Program-made: the position numbers and the translations under genes | Shown here: in pieces, positions 5,038-49,179 of the stretch | Layout: the number at the start of each line of letters is the position of its first letter | Numbering within the stretch: position 1 is the stretch's first letter | Origin: Candidatus Microgenomates bacterium | GTDB taxonomy: Bacteria; Patescibacteriota; Microgenomatia; UBA8517 | Assembly (NCBI GenBank): GCA_049523135.1 | Contig: JBEKNE010000001.1 | Span: 717,234 to 766,412 of the forward strand | DNA: 49,179 bases | Direction of reading: 5' to 3' | Notes under the pieces: generated by a model | What the model was told of the DNA's origin: nothing | The model's database searches: none | What the model saw: the letters and a program-made list of their open reading frames with translations, nothing else

Positions 5038-6702
5038 CTACATTCTTTCCGGAGTTTCGATTCCTAAAATTTTCAGGCCGTTTTTAAGTACAATTCCGGT
5101 TGCCTGCGTTAGTGCAAGCCTGAAATCTTCATTTTCTCCTCCGATGATTTTATCCTTGTTGTAGAAACCATTGTATTTTGAAGCCAATTCATAAAGATAG
5201 TTGCAAAGGATATTCGGTGAGTAAGTTTTGGCTGCAGTCTCAATTACCTCAGAAAATCGGGTTAAACTCCGAAGAATCAAGAATTCTTCTTCGTTTATGT
5301 TTTTAGTAACTTTTATCTCTCGCCCTTTACCTTTTGCCTTCGCGAGGACTGAATTAGTCCGAGCGACGGTATATTGAAGATATGGTCCGGAGTTCCCTTC
5401 CATATTCATTATTTTATCCCAATCAAAAACCACATTACTTCCTACCGAGTGCATCAAATCAAAATACTTTATTGCCCCTATCCCCACATCTTTGGCTACC
5501 AACTCACTACTATTGCCAAGTTTTTTGGCTCTTTCAATTGCTTCATCCAGAACTTCCTCAAGTTTTATAGTTTTTCCTTTTCTGGTACTAAACTTCCTGC
5601 CGTCAGGCGCCAAATATAATCCATGAGCTGTATGGATAAGCTCAACTGAATCTTTTACTAGCCCAAGAAGTCTAGATACTGCAAAAATCTGTTGGAAATA
5701 AAGAGATTGCTCAGCTCCGACTTCATAAATAATGATTGAGGGGTCCCATTTCCTCATCCTGAACTTGATTGTTGCCAAATCCCGCGTTGCGTAAGTTGTT
5801 GCACCGTCATTTTTAAGAAACATCAAAGGAATTTTTATCCCGGCTTTTGATAAATCGATAATTACTGCCCCATCTTCACCTTTTTCCAGATATTTTTTAA
5901 CGGCTGGGTCACCCGCGAGCTGCCTCATTTCGCTTTCGTAGTAGGATTCCCCAAAGGCAAAATCAATTTTTACTCCTAGAAGTTCGTAGATTTTATTAAA
6001 TTCCTTAATTGAGACTTCAACACATTTTCGCCAAATTGACCTTGCTTCAGCATCCCCTTCTTCAAGCTTTTTGAACCATTCTCTCGCTTTTTCTTCCAAA
6101 CTTGGGTCAGTTTCGGCAAGTTTGTGGAACTCAACGTAAAGCTCTTCAAGCTTAGTAATATTAAAATCAGTTACTTTTTCCAATTTAATCATGTAAAGAA
6201 GCTTGCCAAACTGTGTTCCCCAATCGCCCAAATGATTATCACCGACAATTTCATAGCCCAAATCCTTATAAAGATTGTAAAGTGCCTGCCCGATTATGGT
6301 TGATCTAAGATGTCCTATGCCAAAAGGCTTGGCAATATTGGGTGAGGAGTAATCAATCACAACCGTTTTTCCTTTACCAAAACTTGAAGTTCCGTATTTT
6401 TCTTTCTCACTATCAATCTGTGTCAAATTATTGATTAAGACATCACGCTTTAACCAAAAATTGATAAAACCGGGTCCTGCAACCTCGATTTTTTCGGTTA
6501 TACTTTTCAGATTATTTTCCTTATTTAGCTTTTCAACCAAGGATTCCGCAACTTCCCTTGGGTTTTTCTTTTCTTTTTGCGCCAAAACTAGAGCAATGTT
6601 ACTGGAATAGTCACCAAACGACTCATTCTCTGGAAATTCAAGGTTAATTTCTTTTTCTCCTGTAATCTCTTGCAGTGCTTTAATTATTTGGTCTTTAACC
6701 AT
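5038..6702 (-). CDS. argS: Arginine--tRNA ligase
   Basis: FGDYSSN, AGPGFINF, DYSSPNIAKPFGIGHLRSTIIG, HLGDWGTQFG, GNSGPYLQY, PERM C-terminus. Confidence 0.97.
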   Translation of the reverse strand: MVKDQIIKALQEITGEKEINLEFPENESFGDYSSNIALVLAQKEKKNPREVAESLVEKLNKENNLKSITEKIEVAGPGFINFWLKRDVLINNLTQIDSEKEKYGTSSFGKGKTVVIDYSSPNIAKPFGIGHLRSTIIGQALYNLYKDLGYEIVGDNHLGDWGTQFGKLLYMIKLEKVTDFNITKLEELYVEFHKLAETDPSLEEKAREWFKKLEEGDAEARSIWRKCVEVSIKEFNKIYELLGVKIDFAFGESYYESEMRQLAGDPAVKKYLEKGEDGAVIIDLSKAGIKIPLMFLKNDGATTYATRDLATIKFRMRKWDPSIIIYEVGAEQSLYFQQIFAVSRLLGLVKDSVELIHTAHGLYLAPDGRKFSTRKGKTIKLEEVLDEAIERAKKLGNSSELVAKDVGIGAIKYFDLMHSVGSNVVFDWDKIMNMEGNSGPYLQYTVARTNSVLAKAKGKGREIKVTKNINEEEFLILRSLTRFSEVIETAAKTYSPNILCNYLYELASKYNGFYNKDKIIGGENEDFRLALTQATGIVLKNGLKILGIETPERM

Positions 6703-6753
6703 AAGTTAATTTTAATATCTTTCAGCCAAAAATGATATATTCCCCATTTCCTT

Positions 6754-7995
6754 TTGAAAAAAGCAGGGTTAAAATTGGCGGTTATGGTAGAAATTGATAC
6801 AAACGGACCAAAAATAGATAATCTGGGCAGAATTATTTATGATCACGCTCAGGAAATACCATACTCAGAAGGCGCCAGCCGCTGGCAGGAAAGAATAAAC
6901 CAAATAGAACTCACGGGAGGCAACTCTTCACATCAAGTTGTGGTTATCCCAACAAATGATTTAACGGAAAAGCTTTCCCATTTAGACTCTTACCCGTTTG
7001 CAGATAAATATCCGGTTGCTATCGCCAAAGTCGGTAAATTTCCGGACACAGAAGATCTGGACAGAGTTGAAAATGAAGTTCCGGGCGTTAAGCATATAAC
7101 CATTATTGCCTCCCCAACAACTTATGCCGATTTATTCCATATTGCGCAGACCGCCGATCACTATAAAGAGGTTCTGAATACAAATCATGTTACTCTTTTT
7201 GTCCCATATCTAATGACCACGCGCCAAGATAAAAATATCAATTCACGAACTGGTGAATACGAACCTGTTTCTATTAATATACACTCTACAATTAATGCAC
7301 TTTCAGGAAGTATTGACAGTTTTATTGTCATGGAACCGCATTCCTTTGCTACTCAAACAGAAGCCGCAAAAAGAAACAGAGCCCTTTTCCCGGTAACTCC
7401 ATGGAGATTCCTTATGAATGAGGCCACCAGAAGGACTGTAAAAATTGACGGTAAGAAATTTTGGTTCACTAAAGAAAATACATTGAACGTAAGGCCTGAT
7501 ATAGGCAGAAATATTGCCGCCACAAGAAGTGCCGACTATTACGGACTTGAACACATTTCTTTTGATAAAAAAAGGATTAGTCCCACAAAAACAGATTTAT
7601 CTTTATCAGTTGAGGATCAAAAGAGAGTCAAAGATATGATGTGTGTAGTTTATGATGACGAATTGGAGACTTGTGGAACTATTGGAACAATGGCCGAGAA
7701 ATTAACTGAGTATCAAGCCATGGGACTGGTTATTGTTGCCGTTCACGGCAAGTTTACGGGCGAATGGAAGAAAAATATCGCGAGCCCAATGATTAGAAAG
7801 ATATTTATAAGTGATTCCTTTAAGCCGATTGGCAATATAGAACCCTATATCAAGTCCGGCAAAATTGAGGTTATATCTCTCACAAAAAACATCAAGGAAA
7901 TAATTGAGGCAGATTTAAAAGGAGTTAATTTCTGGCTGGATCCAAATTACAGCCACATGGTTCTTCAAACCAACGGGCAAGACGAAAAGTGTTAA
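6754..7995 (+). CDS. Divergent ribose-phosphate pyrophosphokinase (PRPP synthetase)-like protein
   Basis: VPYLMTTRQDK (cf. PY..YARQD), PDIG, YDDELETCGT (PRPP-binding loop), VHGKF. Start uncertain (TTG 6754 or ATG 6784). Confidence 0.7.
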   Translation: MKKAGLKLAVMVEIDTNGPKIDNLGRIIYDHAQEIPYSEGASRWQERINQIELTGGNSSHQVVVIPTNDLTEKLSHLDSYPFADKYPVAIAKVGKFPDTEDLDRVENEVPGVKHITIIASPTTYADLFHIAQTADHYKEVLNTNHVTLFVPYLMTTRQDKNINSRTGEYEPVSINIHSTINALSGSIDSFIVMEPHSFATQTEAAKRNRALFPVTPWRFLMNEATRRTVKIDGKKFWFTKENTLNVRPDIGRNIAATRSADYYGLEHISFDKKRISPTKTDLSLSVEDQKRVKDMMCVVYDDELETCGTIGTMAEKLTEYQAMGLVIVAVHGKFTGEWKKNIASPMIRKIFISDSFKPIGNIEPYIKSGKIEVISLTKNIKEIIEADLKGVNFWLDPNYSHMVLQTNGQDEKC

Positions 7996-8838
7996 TTAGT
8001 AATCCAATATTTATTTCCATCGGTTACCACCTCTATATCCCCCATTCGGTCAGCTCTTAGGATCTTTTCTTTATATTTTGAAAGTATGTCTAAAATTTCC
8101 TGCTTTGGGAAACTCCAGCTATTTTTCCCTACACTGATAACCGCAATTTTAGGCATGGAGGCTTTGAGGAGATTTTCCGCTAAACATTAGTACTTTCATG
8201 ATGAGGTATTTTGATATAGTTAACTGTTCCAATATCCGAATATGTTGTTAGCCCGTCCGGGACTTCAGGCGATACATCTCCGGTGAAAAGTCCCGAGATG
8301 CGGCCAAAGCTAAATTTATAGGCAATTAAATTGACATTTGTATCATCTTCTACACTGAATTCTCTATCTACCGGTTCCTGATCAGGATTAAGTCTATCTA
8401 ACTAGATCAAACCCAACCTAAGCTTCTTGCCTCTACCGGATTCAGAATAGGCATGCCACCCCTCCCCACCCTTTTTTTTAGCGCTTTATATACTTGAGTG
8501 CCAGGATCTATCGGATTTATCAGAATTTCGCCAACATTATAATTTTTTATTACACTTACCAAGGCTGTTGAGTGGTCCGCATCGGGGTATGCCCAAAATA
8601 ACTAGTTCGATATTCCTGTCCCAAAAGGGCATATACTTGCCTAGACAATTAAGATACTATTATCCGGTTCGCCATCCATCAAAATTTGAGTAGTTCCGTA
8701 AGTAATCAAAATAGCGTCCCCTATCCGACATTACAGGCGATAATATGAAGATTGGCATCCGGCCAGTTGGAAAGCGGCAATAACAATACCGGACAATATC
8801 AGCAATAAAATTCCAAAACAATATTTCCAGATTTTCAT
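7992..8838 (-). pseudogene. ComEC-associated metallo-beta-lactamase-fold gene, disrupted
   Basis: Fragments in shifting frames: MKIWKYCFG, NLHIIACNVG*GDAILI (TAG 8723-8721), CLGKYMPFWDRNIELVI, PDADHSTAL, AVISVGKNSW...RADRMGDIEVVTDG. Confidence 0.85.
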
Positions 8839-8872
8839 CCAAATATATCAACGACTTTGCAAAACCACCACC

Positions 8873-9817
8873 TTAAGAATATGAGAGCCAAAGAATCAGA
8901 GCATTGATGATTGGAGACTATATATTAAACTGTCCAAATATAACAAACCATATCGAAGCGACTTCAATTTGGGCGTAAAATGAGGTTGATAGACCTTCTC
9001 TAAGCACTTCAGAAACTCGTTTCAGATAACTTCCGATTTTTGTCAAAAAGCATTATTGATGCGGTTGAAACAAACGACGGGATAAAACCTATATCGGTAA
9101 TCCAATCGGGAACGATAATCAACATTAACCCGGCTGTTAGAAGAAGAACTCTCCACGCGCTTGTCAGTCTCACACCCTCCACCATCCAAAAGGTTAGGAA
9201 TGTTATTATTGCGACCCTGACTAAAGGGGCATCAAACCCTACTACAAAAAGATACAAAATAATACCTAATATAGCAAAAGGTGTCACTTTTCTTCTCGGC
9301 AAAAAGAATATAAGTACCTCCATTAAAAAAGAAACTACAAAAGTTACATTAGTTCCGGACACAACAATAACACGGGCTATCCCGGTAGTTTTTACTTTAT
9401 TCCAAAAATCGGCAGTTATTTCTCCCCTACTCCCAAAACAGTCCCGGCAATTAACCCCAACATCGGTTCCGGCAAAGTCTTTTGATAAAAGGCGATAATT
9501 TTATTTCTTAACCCGGACCCAAAACCCTGATTGGGACTATCGGAAATTAATTTTGCATTTTTAAGTTTTCCATTATCGACAATTCCCTCAACAACTATAT
9601 GATCTCCGTAATTAATCTCGGGAAAAATCGGCAAGGAAATTTTAAGTCCGCCGGCTTTCAGACTTTGAGAATTGGGGTAACTGACAAGGTCGAAAAAAAC
9701 CGTTGCGGATACATAAACAGTGTCCCCGTTTTTATAAACAGGACGGACAGAAAAATATCGGAAAATTATTAAAAAGACAAGAAGTAACCATAAGGAAAAT
9801 CGTTTCACCGTAATCAA
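8873..9817 (-). pseudogene. comEC: ComEC/Rec2 competence membrane domain, disrupted
   Basis: LIAGTVLG / TTGIARVIVVSGTNV / LREGLSTS...FGQFNI*SPIINAL lie in different frames; frameshifts near 9420 and 9040, TAG at 8920-8918. Confidence 0.88.
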
Positions 9818-10457
9818 TAAACTATTACCAGATCTTTAATTTTATTGTAGACAGAAGTCGTTAAAACTCTCTTTGACAGTAATTTTTCGACATTTGAGTA
9901 CGGTCTGTATTCAATAATGTTTTGACCGTATACTTGGCCAATTACATAAAGAGACTCCAGTTGATCGAGGCCGTTTATATTGATGTAAATTAATGCACTA
10001 CTATCGGATGGAAAATCGGCTGACACAGTTTGATATCATCCATTATTTTTAGCAGTCGAGGAACTAGAGTGCTCATCGACAAAAGGTGCAAAAACTTTTT
10101 GCCCGTCTGATAATTTTATCGTCCTGTTTAGATATTTATCAGTCCAAATCTTGTCGACTCCTCTCGAAAAACCGTCAGCAGCAACAAGTAAATCGTCTAC
10201 TCTACTGCCGTCCGATAATTTATAAACCCCCTGTTTATGACAGAGATCCCGAAATCTCTGCGGTAATTAAACCACCACCTTAACCTCCTGTAGTCCCCTG
10301 CAAGACTTCTACTTTTGTTGAGGTGACACTTTAGTTCGTTTTTGAAAAAAATAATGCGTACAACGATTAAGATAAGTCCTACCAAAAGAATCAATAACGA
10401 GTAGTGGTATTTTTGGAGAATTTCATCAAAATTAAATTTTTGGGGCAGGTCCTCCAT
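9814..10457 (-). pseudogene. comEA: ComEA (TM + SLBB + HhH DNA-binding), disrupted
   Basis: N-terminal TM, ITAEISG, GVYKLSDGSRVDDLL, and HhH-like tail IGQVYGQNIIEYRPY split by frameshifts and TGA at 10038-10036. Confidence 0.85.
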
Positions 10458-10459
10458 TT

Positions 10460-12670
10460 TTAAATGACGAAATTAATTAACTTACCAGGGACAAAAATTA
10501 CCTTTTTGATTTCGCTGCCGCTAAACCATTTGGAAATTTTTTCATTTTCTCTCGCCTTTTTTTCAACTTCCGACTGATTACCTACAACTTTCGCATCAAG
10601 ATCCATTGTTTCTCTGATTTTTCCATTAACCTGAACAACAACTGTAACTATATCACTCACTATCAAACTATTATCATATTCAGGCCAAGTAGCCTTGTGA
10701 ACACTAAAAGGTTGTCCCAAAATTTCTACCCAAACTTCTTCGCTTAAATGTGGGGCAAAAGGAGCAATAAGAAGACATAATGTCTTGAGAGTTTCCTTAT
10801 CCGCACCATGCTCAATAAGCGTATTGGTAAGTTCCATAAGAGACGAAATTGCAGTGTTAAATTTATAATTTTCGATGTCATTGGTAACTTTTTTTATAGT
10901 TTGATGTAGTTTGTATAACACTTCTGAATCTGGTTTTTCTTTCGGTTTTTCATTAAACAGTCTCCAGACTTTACCTAAAAATCTATACGCACCCTCTACA
11001 CCCGTGATACTCCATGGCTTCATAAGGTCAAAGGGACCCATAAACATCTCATAGACACGAAGGGTATCGGCACCGAACTTAGGAATGATCTCATCAGGAG
11101 TTACAACATTCCCCCATCTTTTACTCATCTTTCTGCCGTCCGTGCCCAAAACCCAGCCCGGAGCTCTAAGCTTAAGGAACGGCTCTTCCCCCAAGCTTTT
11201 ATCGATTAAACCGGCATCAAAAAGCACTTTCCAAAAGAATCTGGCAAAAAGAAGATGCTGAACTACGTGCCCACCGCCTATATAATCATCAACCGGCAGC
11301 CATTTTTTAATGTTTTCCTGACCCGCAAACTCTTTTTTATTGTTCGGGTCGGCAAAACGAATAAAATACCACGAAGAATCAACATAAGTATCCATTGTAT
11401 CTACTTCCCGCCTTGCCGCCTTGCCGCACTTCGGGCATTTGACACCTTCTTGGAAGGTCTTTGACCGGGCAATAGGGCTCTCGCCATGAGGCAAAAAGTC
11501 CACGTCCTTAGGCAATAAAACCGGCAGATACGATTCGAGGGTAGGCTGCCAGCCACAATCCTGACAATAAATCATGGGGATGGGACAACCCCAGTAACGC
11601 TGACGGCTTATTAGCCAATCGCGAAGATGATAATGGATAGTTTTCTCACCCAAAATTTTATCGGTAAACGGTCTTTCAACTATATCAATATGATACTTAC
11701 CGGCAAATTCTTTGTCCCTTTCATCGTAAGCGGGAACTCCCATTATGGCACCTGTTCCATAGCTGGAATCTACATAATTAGTTTCCCAAATAGGAAGCTT
11801 TTCTCCGTTTAAGGGATTAACTGCATACTCACCTGTGAATTTACCCATCTTTTCCTTCGAATCTTTATTTTCCTTTGAAGCTACAGCCAAAAACGTGGCA
11901 CTGTTAAGCGTATCCGGACAGGTAGTAAAGACTTTTATCTTTTTTTCTGAGCCGTCAATCTCAAATTCAATGGTTCTGCCCTCGGACCTGCCTATCCAGT
12001 TCTTCTGTTGAATCTTAACATCCTCCGGCCAGTCAATACTGTCCAAGCCTGAAATTAGCCTATCTGCATAATCGGTAATTTTGAAGAACCATTGGTCTAA
12101 TTCCTTTTGTATAACCTTTGTATCACAACGCTCACAACGGCCATCGACAACCTGCTCATTAGCCAGTACGGTTTCATCCTTCGGGCACCAGTTCACGGGT
12201 GATTTCTTCTTATAAGCCAAGCCCTTTTTATATAACTCTATAAATAGCCACTGGGTCCATTTATAAAATTCAGGAGAGCTGGTATCAATCTCACGGGACC
12301 AGTCATAGGACATGCCCGAGATTTCAAGCTGACGCTTGAAGGTTTTTATATTCTCATGGGTAGATTTATCAGGGTTAATTCCGGTTTTTATGGCATAGTT
12401 CTCTGCAGGAAGTCCGAATGCATCCCAGCCCATCGGATGAAAGACATTGCGGCCATTCATTCTGAAATATCTGGATAAGATATCTGTACCTACATAGCCT
12501 TCAAGATGACCTACGTGCATTGTGGAACCGGATGGATACGGAAACATATCAAGAATATATTTCTTTTGATGGGAAGCCGCGTCCGACGCTTGATAAAGTT
12601 CATCTTTCGCCCACCTATCTTGCCATTTCTTCTCAATTAGTGTATGGTTATATTTAGTGTCTTTAATCAT
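10460..12670 (-). CDS. leuS: Leucine--tRNA ligase (shortened CP1 domain)
   Basis: MFPYPSG, HVGH, GWDAFGLPAEN, DWLISRQRYWGCPIP, DTMDTYVDSSWY, KMSKR. Confidence 0.97.
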   Translation of the reverse strand: MIKDTKYNHTLIEKKWQDRWAKDELYQASDAASHQKKYILDMFPYPSGSTMHVGHLEGYVGTDILSRYFRMNGRNVFHPMGWDAFGLPAENYAIKTGINPDKSTHENIKTFKRQLEISGMSYDWSREIDTSSPEFYKWTQWLFIELYKKGLAYKKKSPVNWCPKDETVLANEQVVDGRCERCDTKVIQKELDQWFFKITDYADRLISGLDSIDWPEDVKIQQKNWIGRSEGRTIEFEIDGSEKKIKVFTTCPDTLNSATFLAVASKENKDSKEKMGKFTGEYAVNPLNGEKLPIWETNYVDSSYGTGAIMGVPAYDERDKEFAGKYHIDIVERPFTDKILGEKTIHYHLRDWLISRQRYWGCPIPMIYCQDCGWQPTLESYLPVLLPKDVDFLPHGESPIARSKTFQEGVKCPKCGKAARREVDTMDTYVDSSWYFIRFADPNNKKEFAGQENIKKWLPVDDYIGGGHVVQHLLFARFFWKVLFDAGLIDKSLGEEPFLKLRAPGWVLGTDGRKMSKRWGNVVTPDEIIPKFGADTLRVYEMFMGPFDLMKPWSITGVEGAYRFLGKVWRLFNEKPKEKPDSEVLYKLHQTIKKVTNDIENYKFNTAISSLMELTNTLIEHGADKETLKTLCLLIAPFAPHLSEEVWVEILGQPFSVHKATWPEYDNSLIVSDIVTVVVQVNGKIRETMDLDAKVVGNQSEVEKKARENEKISKWFSGSEIKKVIFVPGKLINFVI

Positions 12671-46165: not shown

Positions 46166-46357
46166 CTATTTGGTTGTCCATCTTGTAATTTTCGGGCGGA
46201 TAATATATATCCATGTCAAGGTTAGACCGGCCAGTATCAGAGCTACTCCAACAATTCTTGACCAAAGATACACTGACCAAAAATATATTACGAGAAAACC
46301 GCCGACAATCATTATCAAGATTACAATCAAGGTTCGAACCATGTCTCGATTCTTCAT
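46166..46357 (-). CDS. Small two-TM membrane protein
   Basis: 63 aa; AAGGAGG SD; paralogous to 46354-46557. Confidence 0.7.
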   Translation of the reverse strand: MKNRDMVRTLIVILIMIVGGFLVIYFWSVYLWSRIVGVALILAGLTLTWIYIIRPKITRWTTK

Positions 46358-46557
46358 TTTTCCTCCTTTTTGGAAAACTTATCTATCAGGTTACCTACCC
46401 ATCTTATGGTTTTTGGGTAGATAACGGTTACCCAAGGAAAGGCGGCGCCGATAAACATTATTGTTAATCCGATGCCTGTTGACCAAAAATGTACAACAAG
46501 AAAGCCGCCTAAAAGTAGCACTATGGTTATGATAGTAACCAAGTTTTGGGCTCTCAT
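46354..46557 (-). CDS. Small two-TM membrane protein
   Basis: 67 aa from ATG 46557; AAGGAGG SD; ATGA overlaps at both ends. Confidence 0.72.
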   Translation of the reverse strand: MRAQNLVTIITIVLLLGGFLVVHFWSTGIGLTIMFIGAAFPWVTVIYPKTIRWVGNLIDKFSKKEEK

Positions 46558-46802
46558 TTTTCCTCCTTTAAGAGTTTGATTTCTTGGATCATCCACCCGT
46601 AGAATATTTTATTAAGCGAAAGGGCCGCAAGACCTGACACAAAAATTATCAATGCCCCAAAGAGAAAAGCATATCCGGTTCCTGTTTTCAACGCTAAACC
46701 GAATACATATAATAGAAAGTATAACGCGAAGGCATAGATGGCCAATATTACAATGCTTAAAACAAACAGTCCTAAAGCTGCAAGTAATTTTCGACTATTC
46801 AT
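46554..46802 (-). CDS. Small two-TM membrane protein
   Basis: 82 aa; AAGGAGG SD; two hydrophobic helices. Confidence 0.72.
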   Translation of the reverse strand: MNSRKLLAALGLFVLSIVILAIYAFALYFLLYVFGLALKTGTGYAFLFGALIIFVSGLAALSLNKIFYGWMIQEIKLLKEEK

Positions 46803-46831
46803 TTTTCCTCCTTCTTGGTTAACTTTTTGAT

Positions 46832-46945
46832 TTATTTGCTCTTTTTGTCAGATTTCCGTGTCTTCCACATCTTCCACAAACTGTAGATACTGATGCCAAG
46901 AGCAACTGCGATAAATGCAAAACCCAACAAATCTTGCCATAACAT
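46832..46945 (-). CDS. Single-TM microprotein (37 aa, not in the ORF track)
   Basis: MLWQDLLGFAFIAVALGISIYSLWKMWKTRKSDKKSK; GGAAAGGA 7 nt upstream; extended -10 TG-T-TATAAT at 47027-47019. Confidence 0.55.
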   Translation of the reverse strand: MLWQDLLGFAFIAVALGISIYSLWKMWKTRKSDKKSK

Positions 46946-47058
46946 AGCATTTTCCTTTCCGGGATTTTCCCTAATCAAAAATTTGAAAGTGCAAACGTAC
47001 TATTAGACGATTGAGGCGATTATAACACTTTATTATTTCCCCACAAAAAATCCCCAAT

Positions 47059-47582: not shown

Positions 47583-47700
47583 TTCTGGCGGTGACATATT
47601 TTCGCGGTCAGTTGCCCGACAACTATCGTCTGCGCTAAAGCGTTTTACTTCTGTGTTCGGAATGGGAACAGGTAGTGCCACTTCGCACTAACCACCAGAA
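47583..47700 (-). rRNA. rrf: 5S rRNA
   Basis: TTCTGGTGG/CCGCCAGAA terminal helix, CCCATTCCGAACAC signature. Confidence 0.93.
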
Positions 47701-48728: not shown

Positions 48729-49060
48729 TATTATTGTTAACTCATAATCGCTTATGAGATCCGACTATATCTTAACCGTCAAAATTATTTAACGGTTTCT
48801 GACATATAGTCTGTGAGGATTTCCTTCGATTCTTTTTCAAATCGCTCAGGATCTTTCCTGCTGATTGACCGCACTTGATGCTTTGTCACTCTTACGAGTA
48901 GCACAAGATTCACCGGTGTTTCCAGCATTTAGTCAGATTTATTACCAACTGGAGTTGGTATCTTATAACTAACAGAGAATTACCTTCATTTAAATATAAA
49001 TGAATTCAAAACGTGTATAAGAACGACAGCTCGAATGAACTACATATATCTTATAGTTTT
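48729..49060 (-). mobile_element. ORF-less group I intron after U2604 (E. coli numbering)
   Basis: P1 GACAGU/GCUGUC with U:G, R CACAGACTA (48815-48807), S AAGATATAGTCGG (48773-48761), P9 with GCGA loop; 332 nt. Confidence 0.9.
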
Positions 49061-49094
<34 letters not shown>

Positions 49095-49179
49095 TCACTT
49101 TAACGGGCGAACAGACCGACCCTTGGCACCTTCTTCAGCGCCAGGATGTGATGAGCCGACATCGAGGTAGCGAACCGCG

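Follow-up and report, generated by a model that had tools for sequence, protein, structure and literature searches.

Decay of the comEA-comEC-MBL competence operon in a closed 766-kb genome of a putative Woesebacteria-type bacterium

A competence operon at the leuS locus

What has become of the competence genes expected beside leuS in the closed genome of 766,412 bp studied here (G000)? The window that we analysed, 49,179 nucleotides long, is the last 49 kb of this genome, which appears, from the names of homologues, to belong to an ultra-small bacterium of the Candidate Phyla Radiation (CPR) of the Microgenomates/Woesebacteria type. On the minus strand, 3' of leuS, 2.47 kb (window 10457-7992) contain no long open reading frame (ORF). 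At the same place, intact relatives carry comEA (~205-240 amino acids, aa), comEC with its Competence domain (~345-400 aa) and a separate gene with a metallo-β-lactamase (MBL) domain (~275-315 aa), and the order leuS-comEA-comEC-MBL is kept among them. Few genes are retained as widely across the CPR/Patescibacteria as those for ComEC, DprA and ComFC, and DNA uptake has long been proposed to feed nucleotide-auxotrophic CPR cells. Our results make it very probable that comEA, comEC and the MBL gene have undergone genuine, fixed decay through many lesions in this one Woesebacteria-type CPR species, as part of a loss of the whole transformation pathway. Throughout, coordinates are positions in the window unless given as G000:C1 or on a relative's contig; other G-numbers denote genomes of relatives, and L-numbers denote homologous stretches or contigs from relatives.

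Frameshifts and nonsense codons in the three genes

Lesions were called from frameshift-aware protein-to-DNA alignments against intact homologues of seven relatives, which were mutually consistent (for comEA, the intact ComEA of L012, L006, L044, L178 and L179 were used). Within the 2.47 kb, we counted no fewer than 10 frameshifts, divided equally between the two phases (five each), and six or more nonsense codons, distributed over three pseudogenes:

9814..10457, minus strand: comEA pseudogene, with an N-terminal membrane helix and a C-terminal helix-hairpin-helix (HhH) domain
8789..9826 (about), minus strand: comEC pseudogene, with an OB-fold N-terminus and a Competence channel domain
7992..8838, minus strand: pseudogene of the separate membrane-anchored MBL-domain protein, which in Patescibacteria forms the other half of a two-gene ComEC

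The comEA pseudogene presents two frameshifts, near 10367-10331 and 10237, and two in-frame stops (TAA 10282-10280 and TGA 10038-10036), and its HhH motif LPGIG is altered to LYVIG. Its last fragment still matches the Pfam family HHH_3 (31 bits); the SLBB domain, present in the ComEA of relatives, was undetected in the G000 gene. In comEC, frameshifts near 9435 and 9029 are accompanied by two stops (TAG 8920-8918 and TAA 8875-8873) and by a degenerate C-terminus comprising the last ~40 codons. The Competence family PF03772 matches a single fragment (88 bits) over only positions 2-141/158 of 270, and the rest of the channel was recovered in other frames by alignment to relatives. Moreover, the histidine of the TG(V/I)AH motif, invariant in all nine intact relatives aligned, is replaced by arginine (codon CGT 9374-9372, TGIAH to TGIAR).

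The MBL gene carries six frameshifts (at 8763, 8722, 8648, 8593, about 8430 and 8184) and two stops (TAG 8723-8721 and TAG 8404-8402). The first of these stops corresponds to an ancestral CAG (Gln) codon and is directly followed by the loss of one nucleotide in a run of G. Three of its motifs are changed (THPDADH to AYPDADH, PHHGS to PHHES and TDGG to MDGE), and PF00753 (Lactamase_B) fails to detect the pseudogene, its only match in G000 being an unrelated 555-aa ORF. The reading WSFP at the YGHP motif of the same gene was also considered as decay and rejected, as the intact L178 reads WSFP too (WGFP in L179). Across the operon, the open fragments that are left measure 133-163 aa and still match the OB-fold and Competence domains.

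The original prediction for this locus, made from the letters alone, had described several frameshifts and nonsense codons in all three genes. The lesions are in fact more numerous than those it listed, and the positions it gave for three stops (TGA 10038, TAG 8920 and TAG 8723) and for the His-to-Arg codon proved exact when the codons were checked.

Relaxed constraint and age of the decay

The comparison with sister genomes, which the original prediction had proposed as a means of dating the decay, was informative. Four close relatives (L178, L179, L190 and L191, from a cluster at 75-80% LeuS identity in a large protein collection) were examined, and comEA, comEC and the MBL gene are intact in 4/4 of them; the operon is also intact in all species representatives at 45-62% LeuS identity. 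Decay can be placed on this species' own branch because the four relatives at ~80% LeuS identity keep the operon intact, and sequence comparison thus dates the inactivation to the terminal branch, after the split from these relatives.

The remaining protein sequence shows a loss of constraint. Where all other taxa share one residue, G000 has a different one in 30 of 144 alignment columns of the com genes (21%) versus 1 of 146 in LeuS. When the four close relatives and the more distant L044 are considered, it deviates at 48 of 261 (18%) in the com genes versus 9 of 404 (2.2%) in LeuS, and the four close intact relatives deviate at 3-12% of such columns in the com genes. Besides the motif changes given above, the replacements in G000 include a Leu-to-Pro change in a membrane helix. 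Using a fixed topology, we obtained a terminal G000 branch of 0.127 substitutions per site for LeuS; for the com genes it is 0.454, or 3.6 times as long. The corresponding ratios of the four close relatives are 1.0, 1.2, 1.7 and 2.3. With LeuS and ArgS together as the reference, the com ratio is 3.7 in G000 versus 0.7 and 1.9 in close relatives. An earlier rate test with distant relatives (LeuS 45-62%) had shown no acceleration, but its resolution was too low, and the test with the relatives at ~80% is clear.

Combining the excess of ~0.26 amino-acid replacements per site with the six nonsense mutations among ~810 codons, we roughly estimate that 0.05-0.11 neutral substitutions per site have accumulated since the inactivation, which would correspond to a small, late part of the branch. 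Between the stop codons of leuS and the MBL gene lie 2,468 bp in G000 and 2,624-2,787 bp in the four close relatives, a difference that corresponds to a loss of ~150-300 bp (6-11%) since decay. As the operon is shorter by so little, decay has proceeded by small lesions and with little deletion. After the inactivation, neutral drift would have added short insertions and deletions, premature stops and substitutions at invariant positions to the three genes. Orthology by synteny, several disabling lesions, the absence of an intact paralogue (see below) and relaxed constraint, four features by which unitary pseudogenes are recognized, are all found at this locus.

The remainder of the transformation pathway

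No second ComEC or ComEA was detected in G000, where the broken genes are the only matches to PF03772 and HHH_3. DprA is likewise undetected, with no PF02481 match above the cut-off (a lone 18-bit match is a protein of the LOG/SLOG family), and so are ComFC, for which only chance-level phosphoribosyltransferase matches were obtained, and ComM, for which the matches are Lon and RadA. A comparison set of 40 relatives, drawn from the same family, order and class, includes 37 genomes with ComEC, 39 with DprA, 37 with ComFC and 35 with ComM, and none of them is without more than two of these four proteins. On the other hand, intact ORFs without stops encode PilB (581 aa), PilT (354 aa), PilC (401 aa) and RecA (393 aa). 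The genome-wide search suggested with the original prediction (for a second comEC, dprA, comF and pilus genes) therefore recovers the pilus genes and no copy of the other three.

The former location of dprA can be recognized. In G018, G024 and G006, this gene lies between a gene for a PBP2-type transpeptidase and topA, and these two genes are 136 bp apart in G000 (junction G000:C1:679473-679608). Within this junction, a relic of the DprA winged helix of roughly 90 bp (G000 679489-679578) is matched by the C-terminal ends of four DprA queries. The relic, with an identical core of 25 nucleotides, is common to relatives with an 85% identical TopA (L180-L182), whose junction is equally empty. The loss of the topA-linked dprA thus predates this species by a wide margin, and our initial idea that it disappeared simultaneously with the decay of the operon was withdrawn. 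The remnant probably survives as the upstream region of topA, perhaps as a promoter or leader. G024 and G006 also keep a truncated DprA without the winged helix (187-227 aa) beside topA.

In many relatives, a second copy of dprA is found in a comM-yraN(UPF0102)-dprA cassette of variable position, as in the following example:

L032:2081-4769 (G024): comM (516 aa), yraN/UPF0102 (~120 aa) and dprA with winged helix (267-293 aa); also in L038 (G017), L042 (G021) and L034 (G006)

The absence of this cassette at the FemAB/UvrD junction was at first considered a deletion specific to G000, an interpretation that was withdrawn since close relatives with an intact com operon lack it there too. As for comFC, it adjoins smpB in three relatives, and the search for a relic at the smpB site of G000 gave scores at noise level. 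A cluster spanning 7 kb occupies this site (G000:C1:85056-92209) and encodes a radical-SAM enzyme, a SagB-like dehydrogenase and YcaO, together with a Cys-rich peptide or protein of 195 aa ending in GYGCCCETCCS.

A separate observation concerns the closed relative G017 (L040, G017:C1:756300-765000), where an intact comEA accompanies a comEC ORF of 291 aa from which the N-terminal OB-fold region is missing; the surrounding 8.7 kb examined revealed no MBL-domain gene.

Functional consequences

Without ComEA (the DNA receptor), the ComEC channel and its nuclease-fold partner, ComFC, DprA and ComM, single-stranded DNA would be neither imported nor handed over to RecA. The type IV pilus would be kept for other functions (adhesion or motility) and RecA for repair. 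Selection for DNA uptake seems to have lapsed, rather than its loss having been favoured; a second, less probable reading is that losing transformation was advantageous in its own right, perhaps following a switch of host or habitat.

The original prediction had gone further and proposed that this lineage has abandoned DNA uptake, with two corollaries. For transformation, the proposal is supported by the dead operon, by the lack of a ComEC/ComEA backup and by the undetectable DprA, ComFC and ComM. The first corollary, another source of nucleotides, does not follow: the com genes are dispensable in a Saccharibacterium according to transposon sequencing (Tn-seq; PMC10633639), and thus no replacement source need be postulated. 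The second, reduced recombination, finds no support; an intact RecA means that homologous recombination itself is retained, and only the transformation route of DNA entry would be gone. A deoxynucleoside kinase is encoded in G000 and is patchily distributed among relatives keeping ComEC. Compensation by this kinase or by the "Prs-like" gene that adjoins the operon (described below) was considered and rejected, as both occur in relatives with intact com genes.

Alternative explanations

The evidence on the lesions consists of assembled sequences, obtained from independent libraries and with different assemblers. An identical LeuS is encoded on nine contigs of other assemblies, which collapse to four distinct places: the JGI metagenome 3300038429 and the Logan assemblies SRR13021941, SRR12951261 and SRR12951266. 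All four are 100.000% identical to window 5038-12670 (7,633 bp, with no mismatch and no gap), every lesion included, and their gene callers give the same fragments.

Several points weigh against the interpretation of a fixed loss of the whole pathway. The agreeing assemblies may share one site or study and do not necessarily represent independent populations, and assembly-level data leave room for a minority intact allele. The losses of dprA, comM and comFC may date from other times than the decay of the operon, the topA-linked dprA being already lost in the relatives with 85% TopA identity and the comM-yraN-dprA cassette being likewise absent at the corresponding junction of close relatives that keep the operon. 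Finally, that the organism would be non-transformable is deduced from its gene content and by analogy with the comEC deletion mutant of Wang et al. (2023).

The first of these considerations leads to an alternative in which the decayed sequence is simply the commonest one in a population that also retains intact com alleles, so that the lineage still takes up DNA. Rare variants are indeed lost from contigs and consensus sequences. Nevertheless, the four places to which the nine contigs collapse all show the same sequence, the ~16 lesions and many substitutions imply a long neutral drift, and an intact allele would appear as a distinct haplotype, several percent divergent. As dprA, comFC and comM are missing from the closed genome too, we consider this scenario very improbable.

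It is extremely unlikely, in our view, that DNA is instead taken up by another machine, such as the type IV secretion system of Patescibacteria, the com genes being merely redundant. The intact type IV pilus would be compatible with such uptake, but no analogue of ComEC, DprA or ComFC was found in G000 and relatives carry the same secretion system beside intact com genes. Moreover, the known uptake system based on a type IV secretion system, ComB of Helicobacter, still needs ComEC to cross the inner membrane.

That the operon is truly intact and its lesions are errors of sequencing or assembly (for example, long-read indels left by poor polishing) could be suspected from the single closed contig, which hints at long-read data, and from the 4-6-nt homopolymers that adjoin some of the frameshifts. 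However, three or four frameshift sites have no homopolymer of at least 4 nt nearby, the homopolymer density of the com region equals the genome average, and six lesions are base substitutions creating stops. The errors would also have to recur identically over 7.6 kb in four assemblies from other libraries and to include 28-48 replacements at otherwise invariant residues. Nor is the damage general. A reconstruction of 761 kb of the closed relative G018 yielded 694 ORFs for comparison with G000; among the 498 with a match, mid-gene stops or frame changes affect only three, comEA, comEC and the MBL gene, all other flagged stops lying at alignment ends. ORFs of at least 90 aa cover 91.6% of G000, and the com locus is its longest ORF-free stretch. 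In addition, the separate absence of dprA, comFC and comM is not explicable by a local assembly error. We therefore attach next to no credence to an artefact, as the original prediction had already argued from the intactness of the flanking leuS and "Prs-like" gene; both are indeed intact (ORFs of 736 and 413 aa), as is argS (554 aa), and the four identical assemblies and the census of 498 genes now make the case. We conclude that the lesions are real from the identical independent assemblies, their restriction to the operon, their kind, and the decay at the protein level apart from indels.

Lastly, the idea that the fragments still function, through programmed frameshifting, stop read-through or as a set of small subunits, appeals to the open 133-163-aa fragments and their remaining OB-fold and Competence matches, but is effectively refuted by at least 10 frame changes in both directions and three kinds of stop that fit no single recoding rule, by the use of TGA, TAG and TAA as stops elsewhere in G000, by the replaced key residues and by the relaxed constraint.

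Comparison with known systems and significance

By descent, the G000 locus is a two-gene ComEC operon of Patescibacteria, which it resembles in gene order (leuS-comEA-comEC-MBL) and domain content. In contrast to every relative examined at the leuS locus, where the genes are intact, all three are dead in G000; the locus fails each test of a functional member and is a unitary pseudogene set. The two-gene arrangement, as a rule preceded by comEA, is the usual one in Patescibacteria and agrees with previous work, in which a ComEC-MBL fusion was essentially absent from the CPR and ComEC was undetected in 14% of CPR draft genomes (Meheust et al., 2019; PMC6744442).

The closest experimental parallel comes from Saccharibacteria. 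There, comEC, comF and dprA made no contribution to fitness by Tn-seq, a comEC deletion mutant of Southlakia epibionticum was viable and non-transformable, and the type IV pilus was essential independently of competence (Wang et al., 2023, Cell; PMC10633639). The gene content of G000 mirrors the phenotype of this mutant, the ComEC channel being lost and the pilus retained. The mutant, however, is a laboratory deletion of one gene in another CPR class, whereas G000 presents a natural, fixed loss of ComEA, ComEC, MBL, DprA, ComFC and ComM, in which the operon is still seen as pseudogenes.

Among other bacteria, loss of natural competence via com pseudogenes is known in strains of Aggregatibacter actinomycetemcomitans and Haemophilus influenzae, species that are otherwise transformable. 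There too, frameshifts and premature stops disable several com loci in an otherwise intact genome. Those cases differ in being strain-level polymorphisms of free-living or host-associated Proteobacteria with larger genomes, whereas the loss in G000 is fixed in a species with a 766-kb genome and in a group for which a nucleotide supply by DNA uptake has been proposed. Our literature search found no paper that reports, for a closed CPR genome, either a com operon decaying in place or the disappearance of the entire pathway. Overall, we see no new mechanism in this gene loss, which is a well-documented, coherent and moderately interesting case.

G000 thus represents a natural knockout of a system retained by nearly all its relatives, with pili and RecA kept. 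It indicates that a CPR bacterium outside Saccharibacteria can persist in nature without the whole pathway, in line with the Tn-seq data from the laboratory, and it speaks against the com genes being an obligatory part of nutrition. It also sets apart the role of the type IV pilus, which is kept, from competence, which is lost, and serves as a warning that such lineages would not be tractable by natural transformation.

The locus further offers a rare neutrally evolving stretch in a CPR genome. As ~2.5 kb of dead com DNA persists and no other pseudogene is detectable, one might propose a weak deletion bias in this lineage, although we find this doubtful. If true, small CPR genomes would not be kept small by rapid erosion of unused DNA, and mutation spectra of uncultured CPR could be read from the com locus as one of few internal neutral clocks.

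Neighbouring genes and other features of the window

The pseudogenes are surrounded by the following genes:

10460..12670, minus strand: leuS, intact (736 aa), directly upstream of the com operon and in the same orientation
5038..6702, minus strand: argS, intact (554 aa), the conserved downstream neighbour of the com operon
6754..7995, plus strand: gene of 413 aa ("Prs-like"), intact, tail to tail with the MBL pseudogene, whose stop it overlaps by 4 bp

The 413-aa gene stands outside the com system. Its protein has no Pfam match at E<0.01 and only two weak matches among the 40 relatives. Its sole clear homologue (45.5% identical) lies on the metagenome contig L191, between the MBL gene and argS, where the com operon is intact, and the gene is missing at that position in L178, L179 and L190. 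The LeuS of G000 is short (736 aa), and so is that of the relatives at ~80% LeuS identity (roughly 731-759 aa); among the aligned family members that are more distant, most have a LeuS of 776-881 aa. In L179, a YcaO-nitroreductase pair is located directly upstream of leuS.

A scan of promoters and terminators gave no signal above shuffled expectation. On the minus strand, window 46166-46978 contains a tandem row of four small ORFs for predicted membrane proteins (63, 80, 82 and 48 aa), in an ORF-poor stretch of 1.5 kb that is no pseudogene region. A 5S rRNA gene is found at 47583-47699, and the contig ends inside a 23S rRNA gene (window 48741-49179, model positions 2512-2651), immediately beside a complete group I intron (92 bits).

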